Virus record (IMG/VR): IMGVR_UViG_3300045988_116509
Source: a virus
Length of the DNA: 18,581 nucleotides
Reading direction: 5' to 3' (one strand)
This document shows positions 2,393 through 18,581 of the stretch, piece after piece. Within the stretch, counting starts at the first letter, position 1, and each line of letters begins with the position of its first letter. The notes below the pieces were generated by a model. It was given only the letters and a program-made list of their open reading frames with translations, did not search any database and was not told the DNA's origin. Position numbers and translations under genes: made by a program.

Positions 2393-3337
2393 GTGGCAAA
2401 ACGTAAAGCTAATCGACGCGCCGACAATCTGAAACGCAACGCCGCAATCAGGTCAGCTCAGGTACGTCAGGAGCGGGCGGTAAGGGATTATAGTACCGGA
2501 CGTCTCCCCAAACAAATCACGGAAACGTTTTTGGGAAGGCTTAGCGCCCAGCAGCTTGAACAGGTCGCACGACGTATCGGACAGGAGTTCGGGGAACAAC
2601 AGCAAGCCTTAAGGGCGCGGGATAATGAACCGTATCGGGTTGTGCCTGACGTGCGGATTACGAAACTCGATAGGGAGATGGCGGCTCGACCGTTGATATC
2701 CGACGTGGAGGTTGCCAATGCCCCTTCGAAGCGGCGGAAGACGCTGCGTCAACAGCAGCGCCGTCGGATTGAGGCGCGACGGAAAATCAAACGTGCCCAG
2801 CAGTTCGATGCGTTGAGCATGGCCTCTTATACCGTGGGTGAAGTGCGTGAAATGGAACGTGCGGGCGAATCTCCGTTCGATGTGTTGGGTACTCATACGG
2901 TTGGCGGTTCGGCGCGTGATGACCTTACGCGGAGTCGGGTGAACGTGTTCGGTACGGAACGTGGCATTAGCCATGCGCGTGCGATGATACGAGACGGAAG
3001 CCGTGGGAAGCTCAAACAGGAGATTTTGGAGTATGCCGGGCTTGTGGGACGTGCGCCGTTACGCGCGGGAACCAAGTGGATTCCCGAGAGCGAGGGGGCT
3101 ACGGATTTTGGTAGGGTCGAGCAGCAGTTGGAGGCGTTCGACTCCAGTGTCGCGCAGAAATTCGCGGCTTTGTCCGACCGTCAGAAACGCTGGCTGATGA
3201 ACAACACGAATTTTAGTGCCGTGGTGCGTGAAGCGACATGGTATAATGACAAGGCGCATAAATGGGAGACCAAAGCGGACGCGGGTGACGTTGACACGCG
3301 GATTGACGAATGGATGACCAGCGCAGCACGACACTAA
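2393..3337 (+). CDS. Putative terminal protein that primes DNA replication (314 aa)
   Basis: GTG start with AAGGAGAGG immediately upstream. It lies directly upstream of the protein-primed polymerase, as phi29 gene 3 does. The N-terminus is very basic (MAKRKANRRADNLKRN...), and size and charge pattern resemble known terminal proteins. I could not see direct sequence homology. Confidence 0.5.
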   Translation: MAKRKANRRADNLKRNAAIRSAQVRQERAVRDYSTGRLPKQITETFLGRLSAQQLEQVARRIGQEFGEQQQALRARDNEPYRVVPDVRITKLDREMAARPLISDVEVANAPSKRRKTLRQQQRRRIEARRKIKRAQQFDALSMASYTVGEVREMERAGESPFDVLGTHTVGGSARDDLTRSRVNVFGTERGISHARAMIRDGSRGKLKQEILEYAGLVGRAPLRAGTKWIPESEGATDFGRVEQQLEAFDSSVAQKFAALSDRQKRWLMNNTNFSAVVREATWYNDKAHKWETKADAGDVDTRIDEWMTSAARH

Positions 3338-3350
3338 AAAGGATGGAATT

Positions 3351-4811
3351 ATGAAAGAGCGTCGAATGGCGGCAACGGACGGCGCAACATTATTGACGGA
3401 TGACGGTGTGGAACCGTTGGGGACCTCTGCCGTCATCCGTCTTACCATGCTCGATTGTCATACGCGCGTATGGTGTGCCCACGGATGGCAAGATATCAAG
3501 CCCCTGGCCACCGAACTGTTGAATCGCCTTCCATTGCAACCGAACCCCAGTAAGGACGGCGTGTGGGGGACGTTTAACATTCGTGGCCACTTCTACAGTT
3601 TTCGGGTGCGCATGGGCGGTGTCACCGTGGATTTCTTGGACGTGCGCAATATCACGCGCGATGACGGGCTGAACGTTTCCCGTGAGACGTTTGGCGGTGC
3701 GAATGACTTGGAAACCACGTGGAACATCGTACAGGAGTGTGCCGCACTGAATCTCACGGGCGTCACGATAGCGTCCATGGCGATGACCGATTATATCGGC
3801 GGGGATTACGCCGGGTTCAAACGCCGGTTTCCGCCATTGGATAAGAAGGATTATCGCCGGATGCGTCCCGCCTACTATGGGGCGATAGTACGCAGCAAGC
3901 CGGGCGAATACGGGGATTGTAGGAGCTGGGATGTGAACAGTCTGTATCCGAGCATCATGCACGATATGCCCATGCCGGTAGGTACTCCCGTATGGTATGA
4001 CGGGGAATATCGGGATGATGATGATTATCCACTGCATATCGATGTCGTCGCGTTTGACGCAACGCTGAGGAAGGGGAAGACGGCGACGCTCACCAATATT
4101 CTGCCTGTATGGGGGTATGAGGGCGAACGCTTGGACAGTACGCTCGGCGTCGTCACCATGCCGGTCACGGATGTGGATTGGCAGACGCTTGTGGAAAACT
4201 ATGACGTCCACGTGTGGGAGCATGTCGGCGGCTGGAAATTCCGCAAGTCATACGCCCTTTATCGTGAGTATGTGGACAAGTGGTTTCATGTGAAGCAGAC
4301 CGCGACCGGGGAACGGCGGCAGATGGCGAAACTATTGTTGAATTCACTGGTGGGGAAGTTTGGGGCGTCGCTGTACCGGCCCATGCTGCATCCGAAGCCG
4401 TCCATGGATGGTGGAGTGGATTTTACCGTGGAACAACCCGAGTCGGCCAGCTCTCTCGCATGGCTGCCGACTGCCGCCTATGTCAACGCCTACGGTCGGC
4501 GAATACTGTCTCGTGCGATGAACGCGAACGCCGAACGTGTGCTCTACGCCGACACGGACGGCATGATATTGGAGGGGTTGGATGGGCCCATTGGCATTGA
4601 AACGGATGATAGGAAACTGGGCGCATGGAAGAATGACCACTCTTATGAGAAACTTCGTATTCTCGGCAATCGTAAATATTGCGGCGTAGAGGAAGATGGC
4701 GGCACGGTGATGCGGTTGAGTGGCGTGCATCGTGCCTCCCCCATTCCTTATGACCGGTTTCTGCCGGGGTCTCGCCATCGTAATGACGGTGGCCATACTT
4801 TCGTGCTATAA
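3351..4811 (+). CDS. Protein-primed family-B DNA polymerase, phi29 gp2-like (486 aa)
   Basis: Motif A is DVNSLYPSIM, motif B is KLLLNSLVGKFG and motif C is LYADTDGM. The phi29-like strings YPLHI, DKWFHVKQT and KLGAWK are also present. RBS is AAGGA, 7 nt upstream. Confidence 0.95.
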   Translation: MKERRMAATDGATLLTDDGVEPLGTSAVIRLTMLDCHTRVWCAHGWQDIKPLATELLNRLPLQPNPSKDGVWGTFNIRGHFYSFRVRMGGVTVDFLDVRNITRDDGLNVSRETFGGANDLETTWNIVQECAALNLTGVTIASMAMTDYIGGDYAGFKRRFPPLDKKDYRRMRPAYYGAIVRSKPGEYGDCRSWDVNSLYPSIMHDMPMPVGTPVWYDGEYRDDDDYPLHIDVVAFDATLRKGKTATLTNILPVWGYEGERLDSTLGVVTMPVTDVDWQTLVENYDVHVWEHVGGWKFRKSYALYREYVDKWFHVKQTATGERRQMAKLLLNSLVGKFGASLYRPMLHPKPSMDGGVDFTVEQPESASSLAWLPTAAYVNAYGRRILSRAMNANAERVLYADTDGMILEGLDGPIGIETDDRKLGAWKNDHSYEKLRILGNRKYCGVEEDGGTVMRLSGVHRASPIPYDRFLPGSRHRNDGGHTFVL

Positions 4812-4980: not shown

Positions 4981-4997
4981 AACTGTAAGAGGTGATT

Positions 4998-5339
4998 ATG
5001 GACGATACCGAAAACGATGACAAGCCGGACATCGCGCCGGACACTGAATCGGACGCGACCGCCGATGATAATGCGCCGAATCCGGAGCCTGAGGTTCAGG
5101 ACGATGGCGAACCGGAGGATGCGGGGGACGATAAGAATGCCGATATGGCCAACCGTCTCAGCGCTCTCGAAGCGACCGTGGCCGAATTGTCGAAGACCGT
5201 TGAGGCGATGCGGGATGCGGCGGCCGAGCATGTGCTGAACGATGGTCCTGATGACGATAAGGAGCCGGAATCGTCCGAAATGGCCGACGATGACTATAAC
5301 GGCACTTACGGCACTTTCGACGACCTGTATGAAGAATAA
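4998..5339 (+). CDS. Scaffolding protein, phi29 gp7-like by position
   Basis: ATG at 4998 with AAGAGG 5 nt upstream. The protein is extremely acidic, with a central predicted coiled coil (ANRLSALEATVAELSKTVEAMRDAAA). It sits immediately upstream of the capsid gene. Confidence 0.6.
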   Translation: MDDTENDDKPDIAPDTESDATADDNAPNPEPEVQDDGEPEDAGDDKNADMANRLSALEATVAELSKTVEAMRDAAAEHVLNDGPDDDKEPESSEMADDDYNGTYGTFDDLYEE

Positions 5340-5360
5340 TCATTGGAAAGGAACATTATC

Positions 5361-7097
5361 ATGTCGACTTCTCCTGTGGTGACGCCGAAGCAGCAGCTCA
5401 GGCCGCTCACCGAATTCAACAACGCCCAGATTCTGAACATGATTCGTAATGAGGCGTCTCCCGAATATCAGCGGCGCATGCCTTCCGCCACTCAGATGAA
5501 CATGGACAGGCAGATGGCCACTCTCATGTCCAGCACTCAGCTTAAGAACGAGTTCTATTCGGCGCTGGTCAACCGTATTGGCGGCACGTACGTCAACACG
5601 TGGCGGTGGAACAACCCGTTGGGCGTGTTCCAGCGGGCCTCGCAAGCGTATGGCGATACGTGGCAAGAGATTGCCGTGGGTATGCCGTTGGCGCAAGTGT
5701 ACGACCCGAATGCGGAATATCTCGGTGCGGACAATTTCCGTAAGTGGAAGATTGACGTCGATTCGCTGTATCACCGGCTGGACTTCGCCCACTGGTATCC
5801 GGCCACAACGGACGACAAGACGTTGCAGCGTGCGTTTACGTCCGAAAACGGCTTGGCGTCGCTCACTTCGCAGATTCTCACCTCGTGCTATAACGCGGCC
5901 GAAGTCGACCTTTTCGAAGCCATGTGTCATCAGTTCGTCGAGTATGCGAAGCTCGGCGGCTATTGGCGTGTCCACATGAACAACGATTTGAACGATATGG
6001 GGTCCACGGAAACTCAGGCCCGTGACATGCTGAGGCAGATTCGCGCGTGGGCCGATACGTTGAAGTTCGTCAGCACGCGATACAATGCGCGGCACATGCC
6101 GACGTTCGCCCGTCCTGACGAGCTCGTATTGTTCTGTTCGCCTGAAGTCAAGTCGGCGCTTGACGTGCAAGGCTTGGCCACGGTGTTTCAGCGGACGGAC
6201 GCCGAGCCGACCATCGACCGAATCATCGTCATCCCACAGGACCGGTTCGGCATGGATGGCGTGCAAGCCATTCTCACCACCGATAAGTTCCTCATCGACA
6301 TTCCCGTCATCAACGAGATGACCCAGCAGACGAACCCGGTGAACATCAATTCGGTCAACCATTATCTGCATGTCCAGCACATCGTTTCGGTGTCCGGTTT
6401 CGCTCCCGCCGTAATGTTCTGGACCGGAGACGGTTCCACTGCGAACGCGGTGATGCCGACCGGTACTATGGCCAAAGCGCCGGAGTTCCAGCTGAAGCTG
6501 GCCATGTATGGTGGTGGCTCTGAGACTCCGGCCAATGTGGCTCGTGGCGGTGCGGTACAGGTCACCGCCGATACGACCATCAGCAATGAGGGTGGGGCTT
6601 CGTTCCGTTCGGATGCGGTCAGGTATGCCATCGGCGATACTGTGAAGCCGAAGAGCGATTACACGTACGTTTCGCCTACCGGCGTACTGGTCGTCGGCCT
6701 TGACGAACCGAACACTACCATTCCGGTCACGGCCACCGCGCTGTATACCAATCCTAAGACGCCGGAGGTGTCGGACACCGTATCCGCGGCTTTGGATGTG
6801 TCGGTTGTCGGCGATGGTGTCATCGGCTTCAATCCGTCCATCATCGCGTCGATTGCCGTTACGGTTCCGGCGGTGGCGGAGAAAAAGACGGTTCAGGCGA
6901 GTGCCGTGGCGACCATGATTGACGGACGGACGGCTGATGTGACCATGCAAGCCGCTTGGACTTCCTCCGTTTCGACGAATGCTGCGGTATCCGAGTCGGG
7001 TGCCGTCACCGGTGTTACGGCCGGCGCTTCCGTCATTACCGCCACGCTGTTCGGCGTGTCCGGAAAACGGAGCGTGACCGTAGCCAGCGGAAAGTGA
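5361..7097 (+). CDS. Major capsid protein, phi29 gp8-like, with C-terminal Ig-like (Big_2-type) domains
   Basis: By-eye matches to phi29 gp8: ILNMIRNE against IVNAIRN, NEFYSALVNRIG against NDFITSLVDRIG, CYNAAEVDLFEAM against IYNSAEVDEYEYM, and VSVSGFAPAVMF against LSVSRFANAVAF. The C-terminus (VQASAVATMIDGRTADVTMQAAWTSS...GAVTGVTAGASVITATL) fits the Big_2 pattern. Confidence 0.92.
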   Translation: MSTSPVVTPKQQLRPLTEFNNAQILNMIRNEASPEYQRRMPSATQMNMDRQMATLMSSTQLKNEFYSALVNRIGGTYVNTWRWNNPLGVFQRASQAYGDTWQEIAVGMPLAQVYDPNAEYLGADNFRKWKIDVDSLYHRLDFAHWYPATTDDKTLQRAFTSENGLASLTSQILTSCYNAAEVDLFEAMCHQFVEYAKLGGYWRVHMNNDLNDMGSTETQARDMLRQIRAWADTLKFVSTRYNARHMPTFARPDELVLFCSPEVKSALDVQGLATVFQRTDAEPTIDRIIVIPQDRFGMDGVQAILTTDKFLIDIPVINEMTQQTNPVNINSVNHYLHVQHIVSVSGFAPAVMFWTGDGSTANAVMPTGTMAKAPEFQLKLAMYGGGSETPANVARGGAVQVTADTTISNEGGASFRSDAVRYAIGDTVKPKSDYTYVSPTGVLVVGLDEPNTTIPVTATALYTNPKTPEVSDTVSAALDVSVVGDGVIGFNPSIIASIAVTVPAVAEKKTVQASAVATMIDGRTADVTMQAAWTSSVSTNAAVSESGAVTGVTAGASVITATLFGVSGKRSVTVASGK

Positions 7098-7105
7098 TAT
7101 GATGG

Positions 7106-7127
7106 GAGTGTGGCTTAAGCCGCACTC
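7106..7127 (+). other. Stem-loop immediately 3' of the capsid gene
   Basis: GAGTGTGGC-TTAA-GCCGCACTC, a 9-bp stem with one G:U pair. Confidence 0.4.
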
Positions 7128-7150
7128 TCTCACGGTGTGATGCAAGTCAG

Positions 7151-12633: not shown

Positions 12634-14094
12634 ATGAGTAGTCTCAACAAAACCCCTCATTATAATCTCAGCCAGTTCGGCGACAGTCCGGACGACAAGC
12701 CGTCATGGCGTGGCGATTACACTGCGGACATGAGCCGAATCGACACGCAAATATATAGGAACGCGACCGATATCACCACGGCGACGGCAGCGGCGAACAA
12801 TGCGAACACGGCGGCGGGTCAGGCGAAAACCGCAGCCGATGGCGCTTTGAGCCTTGCACAGGCCAATAAGACCGATATCGCCGAACTGAACGGCTATTTC
12901 GACGAACTTGGCGTCACTTCCACGGTCACGGCGCAAAATCTGCTGACCACCATCAACGGCAAGGCCGATTCCAGTACTCTCGCAAGTAAGGTGGATGCCG
13001 GTGCCGTATACACCAAGGGCGAAGCGGATGGTCGTTATCTGCAATTAGGCGGATATTCCGGTACGGCGGCGAGCATCAACTCCACTGCCATCACGGCGAA
13101 GGATGATGCCAGTGCGGCGAAGTCGACGGCTGCCGTCGCGCAGACTGCCGTGAACTCCGTCGCCGCCGTGACCACCGACCTTACCGAATTGGTGTGGATT
13201 GGTGACAGTCTCAGCACCGGCTATCAGCCGGGGAGGTCCGCGCTCGCCGAAAGCAAGCGTATCCCCCAGCGTGTCGCGTCGAAGCTGGGGCTTAATCTGC
13301 ATGTGTTCGCCAATAATGCCAGTGGCTATGGTACGGCGGGCGATGGGGGTAAGACGTTCCTTACCCTTGCCAGCGAGGCGCTTTCCGCAATGGATGTCAA
13401 CGCCCGTAGGAAGGTCAAGTATGTGGTGGTCTGCGGTGGTAGGAACGATACCGGCGACACGTATACTTCGGCGCTTGGCGTGTTCGACACGCTATTGGGT
13501 ACCGGACCGCGTGCGGACCGGAATTTTCCGAACGCTTCGGCTCACGCCATTTTCCTCTGGGATAATGCGAGCATTCCACCCGCGAACGCCAAGGCGATGA
13601 ACGGCATCGCTTCGGCGGCGGCGGCGAATGGTCTGACATGGCATCCTTGGACGTGGACGCTTGGCATGGGTCATGCTGATTGGTTCGTCGAAGAAAACGA
13701 CCCTCATTACAATGAGGACGGCGCGAATTATATCGCCGGCATTCTCGCTTCGGCCATTGCGGGCGATTGCGAACCGTGCATGGGTGAGCTTTGCGGCGAA
13801 GTGGATATGACCGGCGGTTGTTCGGGTAAGCTTCATTGGCGTTTCGCGGGCGGCGTGGTAACGCTTACCGCGAAGTTCACCGCTTCCAAACCGGCCGGTA
13901 CTATTGCGACGCTGCCGAAGTTCATTGCCCTTGGTGATAATTTCATCATGATTTTGGGCAATTCGGGCAATCAGCAAGCGTTTGCCCGCTTGGATGGCGG
14001 CGTTCTGAACATAACCGGTGTTGTCGGTGGAGGCATATTGTCCGGTAGTTGTTGGATTACACCCCAGAGTTTCATTCCTATCGGTAGAGAGTGA
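12634..14094 (+). CDS. Tail fibre or spike protein 2 with an SGNH/GDSL hydrolase (esterase or deacetylase) domain
   Basis: The N-terminal anchor motif is TPHYNLSQF...GDYTADMSRIDTQIY, followed by an Ala-rich coiled coil. The SGNH blocks are WIGDSLSTG (block I), VVCGGRNDTG (block III) and NDPHYNEDGANYIA (block V-like). RBS is GAGGAA. Confidence 0.75.
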   Translation: MSSLNKTPHYNLSQFGDSPDDKPSWRGDYTADMSRIDTQIYRNATDITTATAAANNANTAAGQAKTAADGALSLAQANKTDIAELNGYFDELGVTSTVTAQNLLTTINGKADSSTLASKVDAGAVYTKGEADGRYLQLGGYSGTAASINSTAITAKDDASAAKSTAAVAQTAVNSVAAVTTDLTELVWIGDSLSTGYQPGRSALAESKRIPQRVASKLGLNLHVFANNASGYGTAGDGGKTFLTLASEALSAMDVNARRKVKYVVVCGGRNDTGDTYTSALGVFDTLLGTGPRADRNFPNASAHAIFLWDNASIPPANAKAMNGIASAAAANGLTWHPWTWTLGMGHADWFVEENDPHYNEDGANYIAGILASAIAGDCEPCMGELCGEVDMTGGCSGKLHWRFAGGVVTLTAKFTASKPAGTIATLPKFIALGDNFIMILGNSGNQQAFARLDGGVLNITGVVGGGILSGSCWITPQSFIPIGRE

Positions 14095-16585: not shown

Positions 16586-16957
16586 ATGACGGAAACCTTA
16601 TTTTACGAAACACTGGCCATACTCGTGTTCATCATCATGGACTACGTTACCGGCGTTATCAACGCCGTAATGCACGGCAAACTTTCCAGCACGAAAATGC
16701 GGGAGGGACTCGGCAATAAATTCGCCTACCTTTGCGTATTCTTCATCGCATGGTTCATCGACTTCGAAATGGAACACATAGACATCGGATTCCATAGCGC
16801 ATTGACACCGCTAGTTACCGTAGGTATTGTTTTCATTGAGCTGTCCAGCATCATCGAAAATATCGGCAAAATCAATCCCAAACTCAAAAACGCCCCATTC
16901 ATGAACATCTTCTCCCAAAACGACAATCAGCCAAACCACAAGGAGGACCGACCTTGA
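16586..16957 (+). CDS. Holin (Phage_holin_4_1 / LL-H-type pattern)
   Basis: Three hydrophobic segments. The characteristic strings are DYVTGVINAV...SS..MREGLGNK and IELSSIIENIGKINP. RBS is GAGGAA, and the endolysin gene follows directly. Confidence 0.85.
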   Translation: MTETLFYETLAILVFIIMDYVTGVINAVMHGKLSSTKMREGLGNKFAYLCVFFIAWFIDFEMEHIDIGFHSALTPLVTVGIVFIELSSIIENIGKINPKLKNAPFMNIFSQNDNQPNHKEDRP

Positions 16958-17823
16958 ACGATATCACATGGATAGGCTCACCCAACCACTACAACGGCCG
17001 TAACGGCCTCACCATCACCCACATCACACTCCACATCATGGTCGGCCACCTCACCGGCACCGACAGCGTATTCCAACACCCCAGCGGAGCCTCAGCACAC
17101 TACGGAATCGGCGCAAACGGTGCCATCCATCAATACGTCAACGAAAACGACGGCAGCTGGAGCGACGCAAACTATACGAGCAACAACAGCACCATCAGCA
17201 TCGAACACGAAGGCGGCATGAACGGCATCCCATGCACCCAAGCATGCATGGACGCATCAGCCAAACTCTGCGCCGACATCGCCCGACGACAAGGATGGAC
17301 ACACCTCTGGCATGACGGACTCAACGGCAACATCTGGCTCCACCGCGAAATACCCGGCACCGACCATTACGGCTGCCCCGACCTAGCACCAAACGGACTT
17401 GACGTAAACTACGTCATCAACAAAGCAAACCAAATACTAGAAGGAGACGACATGTCAGCAGAAGACGTGTGGAATTTCGACCAAAACGGTGTAAAAATGC
17501 GCGACCGCATGCAAGGCACCGACACAGCAGCCAACGCCACCAAAACCGAACTCTTCCGCCTCTCAAAATGGGACAACAAAACCCACGCATCCCCACTAGG
17601 CAACCTCATCATCGAACAGCCAATCCAAGGAGGAGCCAAACTCGGCGACCGAGTAGCCGGCATCGACAACAAAACCAGCCAACTCATCACACAAGTAGCC
17701 GCACTCACCGCAGCCGTAAAAGCCCTCTCCGAAAGCATGGGCGCCAACCCCGACACCATCGCACAAACCGTGCAAAACGCCGTAAAAGCCAAACTAGACT
17801 CGCTCACCATCACAGTGGAATAA
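16954..17823 (+). CDS. Endolysin: N-acetylmuramoyl-L-alanine amidase (Amidase_2/PGRP fold) with a non-canonical C-terminal domain
   Basis: TTG start 6 nt after AAGGAGGA, overlapping the holin stop as TTGA. The amidase pattern is HIMVGH...SAHYGIGANGAIHQYVNENDGSW...ISIEHEG...HREIPGTDHYGCP. Confidence 0.88.
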   Translation: MNDITWIGSPNHYNGRNGLTITHITLHIMVGHLTGTDSVFQHPSGASAHYGIGANGAIHQYVNENDGSWSDANYTSNNSTISIEHEGGMNGIPCTQACMDASAKLCADIARRQGWTHLWHDGLNGNIWLHREIPGTDHYGCPDLAPNGLDVNYVINKANQILEGDDMSAEDVWNFDQNGVKMRDRMQGTDTAANATKTELFRLSKWDNKTHASPLGNLIIEQPIQGGAKLGDRVAGIDNKTSQLITQVAALTAAVKALSESMGANPDTIAQTVQNAVKAKLDSLTITVE

Positions 17824-18105: not shown

Positions 18106-18183
18106 CAACAATCCTTTCCTTGAAGTTCGCAACAACAGTACACTATACAACAAACAATACAACCAAAACACGACACGCCGAAA

Positions 18184-18542
18184 CGGCAAAAAAACGATAA
18201 AAAAAACCACGCGACCAAACCGCAGAATAAAACAGCAAAAAAACCAGCAACGAAAAAGACAAGAACAAAACCGAAAACAACAAAACAGAGAAACAAAAAC
18301 AAAACAAAGACAGCCACGAAAAACAAATAACAGAGCGCAACAGCAAAACACACAACAGAGCAGCGGCAAAAAAACGATAAAAAAACCACGCGACCAAACT
18401 GCAGAATAAAACAGCAAAAAAACCAGCAACAAAAAAGACAAGAACAAAACCGAAAACAACAAAACAGAGAAACAAAAACAAAACAAAGACAGCCACGAAA
18501 AACAAATAACAGAGCGCAACAGCAAAACACACAACAGAGCAG
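18184..18542. repeat. Tandem direct duplication of the ITR unit, present only at the right end
   Basis: The inner copy is 18184-18363 (180 bp) and the outer copy is 18364-18542 (179 bp). They differ by two substitutions and one extra A in a homopolymer. The left end carries a single copy (40-218). Confidence 0.9.
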
Positions 18543-18581
18543 CTATGGAAAAAGGATTGCTGCTGGGACCCCTCCCCTCCT
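18362..18581. repeat. Right inverted terminal repeat
   Basis: Exact reverse complement of 1-220. The window ends precisely at the repeat, as expected for a full-length linear genome. Confidence 0.95.

Follow-up and report, generated by a model that had tools for sequence, protein, structure and literature searches.

A compact phi29-type protein-primed DNA polymerase with a degenerate 3'-5' exonuclease domain, encoded by a Bifidobacterium phage

Background

The DNA polymerase (DNAP) of phage phi29 (gp2; PDB 1XHX, 2PYJ, 2PY5) is the model for protein-primed replication, and among its non-degenerate relatives the motifs of the N-terminal exonuclease vary little or not at all. In the phi29 enzyme the exonuclease domain combines with TPR2, palm and fingers to build a narrow tunnel for the downstream template that forces strand separation; Y101 and T189 contact the template in the tunnel, and the 121-125 loop packs on the 183-189 linker (PMC6351526). 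Here we describe a compact phi29-type protein-primed family-B DNA polymerase (pPolB) of 486 amino acids (aa), encoded at positions 3351-4811 on the plus strand of IMG/VR virus record IMGVR_UViG_3300045988_116509. The whole stretch of DNA that was analyzed, 18,581 bp, is called the window below. The open reading frame (ORF) encodes the replicative enzyme of a phi29-like Bifidobacterium podophage that is uncultivated, and it belongs to a monophyletic "compact clade" of polymerases that have discarded the catalytic residues of the exonuclease while its fold is kept under purifying selection.

The nearest described precedents lie outside the tailed phages. In the mavirus-type virophage pPolB and in the pPolB-S1H fusions of polinton-like viruses the exonuclease domain is a remnant or lost, and a lower fidelity has been inferred (PMC11161782). 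These are enzymes of eukaryotic viruses with terminal protein (TP) and vOTU domains, which have physically lost the greater part of the exonuclease domain and gained a helicase along with the loss, whereas the window enzyme keeps the whole fold under purifying selection and neither Pfam nor PHROGs assigns any window ORF to a helicase family. In Pol alpha, Pol zeta and archaeal PolB2 the exonuclease fold is kept and the catalytic residues are replaced (PMC7544198); these RNA- or DNA-primed cellular enzymes have another architecture and other partners, and they offer an analogy, not membership. For the pPolBs of tailed phages we found no report of an inactivated or remnant exonuclease domain, and literature searches on exonuclease-deficient phi29-like, protein-primed and Bifidobacterium-phage polymerases yielded no description of this domain in the compact clade. 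A 2024 review of phi29-like phages covers BadAztec and BD811P and makes no mention of exonuclease loss (PMC11476376). The database records of the cultured phages BadAztec1, BP1 and BD811P2 annotate the gene simply as "DNA polymerase".

The N-terminal domain is a diverged exonuclease homolog

The original prediction, made by eye from the sequence, had described a compact 486-aa enzyme whose polymerization domain aligns with phi29 DNAP. Translation of the ORF confirmed the length, which is 89 aa less than in phi29, and the alignment proved robust. The C-terminal two thirds of the protein are a phi29-type polymerase according to both Pfam (DNA_pol_B_2, PF03175, 115.9 bits against a cutoff of 25.8, with coverage of only aa 132-340) and phmmer (E = 1.5e-42 against 1XHX, aa 155-444 on phi29 206-501), and the polymerase also matches PHROG 1907 (E = 6.7e-52). 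The full-length AlphaFold2 model, built with a 42-sequence alignment, has a predicted local distance difference test (pLDDT) score of 91.1, with 87-95 in the N-terminal domain, and a predicted TM-score of 0.88; its first Foldseek match in the PDB is phi29 DNAP (2pyj_B, TM-score normalized by the query (TMq) 0.84, E = 3.8e-39). A Pfam search at E-values up to 1 detected no exonuclease family on the polymerase.

The N-terminal domain (aa 1-135, positions 3351-3755, on the plus strand like all features of this gene) is nevertheless a true, if very diverged, homolog of the phi29 3'-5' exonuclease domain, because its model matches phi29 DNAP in the PDB and the N-termini of pPolBs in BFVD. Modeled alone (pLDDT 89.7), the domain retrieved from the PDB only chains of phi29 DNAP (TMq 0.60-0.65, 8-10% identity), and no other protein at E < 0.1; in BFVD the best match was the BadAztec1 polymerase, followed by the N-termini of other pPolBs. 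The model comprises strands at residues 4-9, 13-16 and 19-22, a helix at 25-32, a strand at 37-42, a helix at 46-59, three strands and then helices. This order, b1-b2-b3-aA-b4-aB-b-b-b-a-a-a, is presumably that of the phi29 exonuclease domain from its residue 1. Together with the phi29-only PDB matches, it points to a DnaQ/RNase-H-like fold for the modeled domain.

In order to place the catalytic motifs we combined a MAFFT alignment with phi29 DNAP and full-length relatives, an hhalign comparison of a 19-sequence compact-clade alignment with a 19-sequence canonical alignment, and an hmmsearch (HMMER) of the compact-clade profile against the PDB. The three approaches concur on the placement of the N-domain segments. 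A domain-only hhalign comparison of 27 compact sequences with a canonical exonuclease profile gave a probability of 96% (E = 2e-9); the clade profile was needed to reach this value, since with the single sequence hhalign aligned only the central hairpin (aa 67-110 on phi29 82-142) with a probability of 17.7%. In the full-length hhalign alignment residues 24, 147 and 476 pair with phi29 43, 197 and 552, so that the 89 missing residues divide into 50 from the N-terminal domain, 26 from the polymerase domain and 13 from the C-terminal tip. The notion that the enzyme is shortened mostly at its N-terminus is therefore roughly right, as far as the 50 residues missing before phi29 residue 197 are concerned.

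The motif-by-motif picture differs from the original prediction, which had correctly sensed that the exonuclease motifs are degenerate and had misjudged both the manner of their erosion and their positions. The ExoI remnant is RRMAATDGAT (aa 4-13, positions 3360-3389), in which, according to the local and global modes of hhalign alike, D10 corresponds to phi29 D12, A12 replaces E14, and T13 corresponds to T15. An alternative MAFFT register puts D10 on E14, and whichever register is chosen ExoI keeps one carboxylate only. The string MLDCHTRVWCAHGW (aa 33-46, positions 3447-3488), earlier read as an ExoI with DxH (LDCHT), belongs to the next motif: its "RVWCAHGW" segment is the ExoII strand. MAFFT and hhalign place HTRVWCAHGWQD (aa 37-48) on the strand and helix "ADLYFHNLKFD" of phi29 ExoII, in agreement with strand 37-42 and helix 46-59 of the model. 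In the resulting ExoII remnant HTRVWCAHGWQDI (aa 37-49, positions 3459-3497) H44 corresponds to phi29 H61, G45 replaces N62, and D48 falls on D66 or, in the ungapped MAFFT register, on F65.

The string TFNIRGHF (aa 74-81, positions 3570-3593), formerly taken for ExoII, is part of a later beta-hairpin and strand (aa 74-97, positions 3570-3641) in which "TFNIRGHFYSF" aligns with the phi29 hairpin "IISRMGQWYMI" (residues ~92-103), Y82 corresponding to phi29 Y101 and D97 to D121. It is followed by VRNITR (aa 98-103, positions 3642-3659), which aligns with the D121-K125 loop and replaces the phi29 single-stranded DNA (ssDNA) ligand motif S122/L123. Instead of the supposed loss of about 25 aa after ExoII, there is a 27-aa deletion immediately before ExoIII, between aa 117/118 and 119, which takes out phi29 K143 to Y165. 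The deletion and the subsequent ExoIII remnant helix (aa 119-132; together positions 3699-3746) are seen by hhalign, HMMER and MAFFT, with D119 corresponding to phi29 D169 (HMMER with the A1 profile aligns "tD" to N168-D169 of 1xhx). The true ExoIII tyrosine is thus deleted and only the aspartate D119 remains, in the subclade of the window protein. The string YIGGD (aa 148-152, positions 3792-3806), offered earlier as a retained ExoIII, lies on phi29 ~198-202, after the conserved MTAGS linker and about 30 residues past ExoIII. Together with TIASMAM, whose T139 corresponds to phi29 T189, it forms the linker between the exonuclease and polymerase domains (positions 3765-3806; hhalign, phmmer).

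In sum, the window protein has lost E14 (A12), N62 (G45), K143, Y165 and the ssDNA ligands S122 and L123, and up to three of the four carboxylate positions, D10, D48 and D119, are still aspartate. Of the phi29 positions proposed for inspection, D12, D66 and D169 thus have aspartates in the profile alignment, while E14 is an alanine and Y165 is deleted. Lacking the fourth carboxylate and, within the 27-aa deletion, the general-base tyrosine of the Yx3D motif, the window protein is not, by sequence criteria, an active DEDDy exonuclease.

Loss of exonuclease motifs across the compact clade

When 1.84 billion representatives were searched exhaustively with the profile, about 22 clusters (at 50% identity) of compact enzymes of 454-496 aa emerged, after which the scores fall sharply to ordinary enzymes of 540-600 aa that match the profile only from position ~117. 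We built a hidden Markov model (HMM) from the phi29 1-190 region of canonical relatives; it scores canonical polymerases with 77-303 bits (median 193.5) and the compact clade with anything from no match to 17 bits, the window protein having no significant match. With no intact DEDDy site and no match to this HMM, the earlier suggestion that proofreading is lost is probably correct. In an alignment of 171 sequences 128 were classed as not degenerate, and 118 of these have D12, E14, D66 and D169 at the aligned columns, the other 10 lacking only the N-terminal columns. Most of the 118 read DETN[FYW]DS.KYD at phi29 positions 12, 14, 15, 62, 65, 66, 122, 123, 143, 165 and 169, a pattern found in none of the 25 compact representatives.

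Residue counts over 27 diverse compact sequences (454-496 aa), which include those of cultured Bifidobacterium phages, reveal how far the erosion has gone. The position of D10 (phi29 D12) is acidic in 20/27, whereas that of A12 (E14) is acidic in four, those of D48 (D66) and D119 (D169) in eight each, and asparagine is found at the position of G45 (N62) in two. E121 is acidic in 17/27. The tyrosine of YIGGD, Y148, is present in 18/27 and its aspartate D152, which has no phi29 equivalent, in 11/27. The only N-domain positions conserved in at least 80% of the clade are N100 (27/27), R103 (22/27), T139 (27/27), A144, F160 and P161; the position of Y82 is Y, F or I in all 27 sequences, and D97 is aspartate in 17. 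No acidic or histidine cluster of catalytic appearance is conserved across the 27 sequences, which leaves no basis for the different metal chemistry that had been envisaged.

The polymerases of BadAztec1 (469 aa), BP1 (471 aa) and BD811P1-3 are members of the same clade, with 35-38% identity to the window protein over ~90% of the length, the same gene order and the same loss of exonuclease motifs. They differ from it in being more eroded, as the equivalents of D48 and D119 are also gone. The window enzyme is a less eroded member of the clade, since D10, D48 and D119 are conserved in its own subclade (94/95, 89/95 and 87/95 sequences, respectively). In BD811P2 (OP172659.1, ~3240-3387) the annotated start of the polymerase (445 aa) was apparently set too far downstream, as VTVLDGRVGLWCVDETIRFTDGTEL, which precedes it in the same frame, can be aligned to the N-terminal strands of the other compact polymerases and to the 483-aa metagenomic relative P0124.

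Selection, phylogeny and changes in the polymerase site

The ratios of nonsynonymous to synonymous substitution rates (dN/dS) were calculated according to Nei and Gojobori for the window gene and three relatives, using the three closest pairs only, as dS is saturated in the distant ones. The N-terminal domain has dN/dS of 0.08-0.16 and the polymerase domain 0.09-0.10; the N-terminal domain is under purifying selection and is not decaying. Because of these low values, and because the cultured, plaque-forming phages BadAztec1, BP1 and BD811P1-3 carry the same compact enzyme, we regard it as a working replicase.

In a neighbor-joining (NJ) tree of the polymerase domains of 171 representatives the compact clade forms one group. 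It is adjoined by P0144 (526 aa) and P0134 (543 aa), which are longer but already lack the K143-Y165 segment, an indication that this segment was lost early on. Some 17 other enzymes (516-584 aa), scattered over several places in the tree, appear to be exonuclease-degenerate: they score ~0-114 bits with the canonical exonuclease HMM and have ExoI, ExoII or ExoIII not intact. The pPolBs that appear degenerate in this way are P0134, P0135, P0144, P0162, P0177, P0204, P0205, P0212, P0217, P0222, P0230, P0236, P0239-P0241, P0244, P0251 and P0262. Their scatter hints that proofreading loss is recurrent among phi29-like polymerases, in a sample biased by the query profile and a type of tree that is weak evidence.

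As regards the polymerase proper, the window enzyme shares with phi29 DNAP the overall architecture (exonuclease-like N-domain, palm, TPR1, fingers, TPR2 and thumb), the catalytic aspartates, the steric-gate tyrosine and the motif-B lysine, and differs from it in its length and in the N-terminal domain, which is only 8-11% identical. Membership in the phi29-type pPolBs is borne out by the profile matches, the polymerase motifs, the TPR insertions and the fold, but not by the exonuclease motifs ExoI (DxE), ExoII (Nx2-3[F/Y]D) and ExoIII (Yx3D). Motif A (Dx2SLYP) reads DVNSLYP (positions 3930-3950; D194 and Y199 correspond to phi29 D249 and Y254), motif B (Kx3NSxYG) KLLLNSLVG (4329-4355; V334 in place of Y390), motif C (YxDTDS) YADTDG (4545-4562; D401 and D403 correspond to D456 and D458, and S459 is replaced by glycine), and the KxY motif RKY (4671-4679; R441 in place of K498); in addition, phi29 T434 is replaced by asparagine. 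Both TPR insertions are present, given the continuous alignment to phi29 261-358 and 398-420. The TPR2-equivalent beta-hairpin (aa ~343-365, positions 4377-4445), aligned to the latter region, has strands at residues 345-350 and 356-361 in the model, which shows a hairpin at aa 345-361.

Several of these replacements characterize the whole clade. Tyrosine is found at phi29 Y390 of motif B in 0/25 compact sequences (V, I, T or A instead) versus 119/128 canonical ones, and lysine at K498 of the KxY motif in 0/25 (with R, G or N instead) versus 128/128. At T434 of the Tx2GR motif 17/25 compact sequences have asparagine versus threonine in 123/128 canonical ones, at S459 glycine is present in 16/25 versus serine in 125/128, and at D456 asparagine in 10/25 versus aspartate in 128/128. 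The equivalents of D249, Y254, K383 and D458 are invariant in both groups. The asparagine at D456 gives a variant of motif C, YxNTD, which was observed in P0094, P0099, P0100, P0121-P0125, P0132 and P0137, and the window protein keeps its D401. We take residues of the Y390, K498 and T434 type to act in the stabilization of the primer terminus and in nucleotide selection. The pattern is consistent with what would be expected if constraints on the partitioning of the primer between the polymerase and exonuclease sites had been lifted.

Proposed role of the domain and alternative explanations

We consider it quite likely that the N-terminal domain is a homologous exonuclease fold, dead in proofreading, that has been kept as a structural scaffold, and the loss of full proofreading as such appears a little more probable still. 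The window polymerase would then have little or no proofreading activity. Its N-terminal domain, with TPR2, palm and fingers, would form a downstream-template tunnel that provides strand displacement, and might in addition dock or contact the terminal protein. The replacements of Y390 by V/I, K498 by R/G/N and T434 by N would fit a partitioning between synthesis and editing that was relaxed or re-tuned after editing had been lost. The role as a tunnel wall is suggested because conserved N-domain positions align with the phi29 tunnel contacts: Y82 with Y101, T139 with T189, and D97 and N100 with the D121-K125 loop (N100 on K124). For this scaffold or tunnel function our confidence is lower, though we lean towards it.

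Certain points weigh against this interpretation. D10, D48 and D119 are retained in the window's subclade, where residual metal binding or weak exonuclease activity may persist; the registers of ExoI (D10 on D12 or E14) and ExoII (D48 on D66 or F65) are ambiguous by 1-2 residues; the inactivity of the exonuclease is deduced from its sequence, and the tunnel or scaffold role from alignment to phi29 residues. A weak or specialized exonuclease operating in the subclade through these three aspartates, perhaps with E121 or water substituting for the glutamate and tyrosine, would also agree with the positions of the aspartates at or beside phi29 D12, D66 and D169, with the acidic character of E121 in much of the clade, and with the strong purifying selection on the domain. 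We find it rather unlikely, as the ExoI glutamate, the ExoII asparagine, K143, Y165, S122 and L123 are all gone, most other clade members, viable cultured phages among them, lack D48 and D119, and the purifying selection is even across the domain and not centered on D10, D48 and D119. Single substitutions in phi29 DNAP at the counterparts of these missing residues reduce the exonuclease activity ~10- to >100-fold. The D12A/D66A double mutant of phi29 DNAP is in use as an exonuclease-deficient enzyme (PMC6351526).

The scheme of the original prediction, in which the site survives with histidines in place of two metal-ligand carboxylates (DxH and Nx3H), YIGGD serves as ExoIII and the metal site is altered, for instance His-ligated, seems to us extremely improbable. 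The quoted strings do exist, and H37, H44 and H80 are present in 88-91 of 95 close relatives (83-91% identity); over the whole clade they are histidine in only 7, 7 and 9 of the 27 sequences, respectively, and D152 is likewise poorly kept. None of the three occupies a metal-ligand position, and H44 corresponds to H61 of phi29, a histidine in canonical enzymes too. MAFFT, hhalign and HMMER put the segments on other structural elements, and the proposed register would leave the 34 N-terminal residues (b1-b2-b3-aA of the model) unexplained, while ExoII would be followed by three strands in a row in place of the helix aB that is due there. On the profile alignments and the order of secondary structures we therefore reject LDCHT, TFNIRGHF and YIGGD as ExoI, ExoII and ExoIII. 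Unreduced fidelity through proofreading in trans, whether supplied by the phage or by the host with an exonuclease of the DnaQ-like epsilon kind, is a very unlikely alternative: trans-acting proofreading subunits exist in bacterial replicases, and the window contains early ORFs without assigned function (283-720, 852-1481, 1478-1798 and 4992-5339; Pfam, PHROGs), yet no ORF of the window, to which the search extended, matches an exonuclease family (Pfam, PHROGs) or the pPolB exonuclease profile (hhalign, all below 1% probability), and we know of no trans-proofreader for any protein-primed polymerase. The probability of an artifact, be it truncation or a wrong start of the gene, faulty assembly or a pseudogene, is practically negligible. 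The apparently misplaced start annotated in BD811P2 shows that starts in this clade can be mis-called, but 486-aa homologs form more than 80 clusters on contigs of up to ~19 kb (longest per cluster), residues 1-13 are conserved, an AGGA ribosome-binding sequence lies 9-12 nucleotides (nt) upstream of the ATG, dN/dS is ~0.1, the genome is complete with its terminal repeats, and the N-terminus is modeled at high confidence.

The idea of a proofreading-dead scaffold may be extended, tentatively and with the balance slightly against it, to the entire lineage: the phi29-like podophages associated with Bifidobacterium, of which metagenomes hold many and some are in culture, would replicate without proofreading and without a compensating helicase or trans-exonuclease. 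Were this true, their mutation rates would exceed those of other dsDNA phages by 1-2 orders of magnitude, the fold of the dead exonuclease would serve purely as the wall of a strand-displacement tunnel, the polymerase would be a naturally minimized, exonuclease-free, strand-displacing pPolB of at most 486 aa, and the apparent scatter of degenerate pPolBs would mean that phages with very small genomes have repeatedly given up proofreading as a strategy. As a natural experiment, the compact clade would set the structural role of the domain (the tunnel with its strand displacement, and perhaps the docking of the TP) apart from the editing role. Replication in this common group of gut phages is predicted to be unusually error-prone, which would bear on their micro-diversity and on the evolution of host range, and amplification and sequencing chemistry might draw on a smaller polymerase scaffold that is naturally exonuclease-free and probably strand-displacing. 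The co-variation at Y390, T434 and K498 flags residues whose constraint may depend on the presence of the editing site.

Genome termini and gene neighborhood

The window carries inverted terminal repeats (ITRs) of 244 nt at its exact ends (positions 1-244 and 18338-18581, 96% complementary), and because these mark both ends it is a complete linear genome, namely that of an uncultivated Bifidobacterium phi29-like phage. The phi29 genome is also linear with ITRs, which are of 6 nt only. Both termini of the window begin with AGGAGGGGAGGGG. Near the right end (18165-18400) part of the T-rich ITR sequence occurs once more internally: in repeat I2 positions 25-214 pair with 18189-18378, at an offset of ~179 nt from the terminal copy, so that in the right terminal region the ITR is partially duplicated in tandem.

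Pfam and PHROGs identify a gene set typical of phi29-like podoviruses, comprising major head, tail, upper and lower collar proteins, packaging ATPase, holin and endolysin. As in phi29, genes for the single-stranded DNA-binding protein (SSB), a candidate TP and the polymerase are in a row. The phi29-type SSB gene is at positions 1826-2263 of the plus strand (PF17427, 54.6 bits; PHROG 6243), and directly upstream of the polymerase gene, at 2393-3337 on the same strand, is an ORF for a 314-aa protein with a very basic N-terminus, AKRKANRRADNLKRN. It occupies the middle place in the SSB-X-polymerase order of phi29-like phages, and this synteny makes it a candidate terminal protein. Its homologs, at the equivalent position in BadAztec1, BD811P2 and BP1 (E-values from 4e-22 to 7e-14), come from Bifidobacterium phages only, and neither phmmer nor profile-profile hhalign comparison revealed similarity to the terminal proteins of phi29, Athos and Curie.

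The gene order agrees with that of Bifidobacterium phage BD811P2, and close homologs of the polymerase are encoded on contigs that reach ~19 kb in length and include one labeled as a Bifidobacterium breve metagenome-assembled genome. A megablast search of the whole window against GenBank phages matched the endolysin region only (16850-17817), with 86-87% identity to the Bifidobacterium dentium phages BD811P1-3, while the polymerase protein is only ~36% identical. The high nucleotide similarity of the endolysin against the low identity of the polymerase suggests that the lysis module was recently exchanged, and it supports a Bifidobacterium host.

Two other reading frames deserve mention. A 601-aa open frame on the minus strand (5340-7145) runs opposite the major capsid gene (5343-7097); most likely it is not a gene and arises from the high G+C content and the codon bias. 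A second ORF of 486 aa, at 12634-14094 in the region of the tail genes, contains a sub-threshold match to the GDSL/SGNH lipase-esterase domain PF13472 (score 27 bits, cutoff 32.9), which is equally weak in its relatives; the product may be a tail-associated esterase that acts on the cell envelope.

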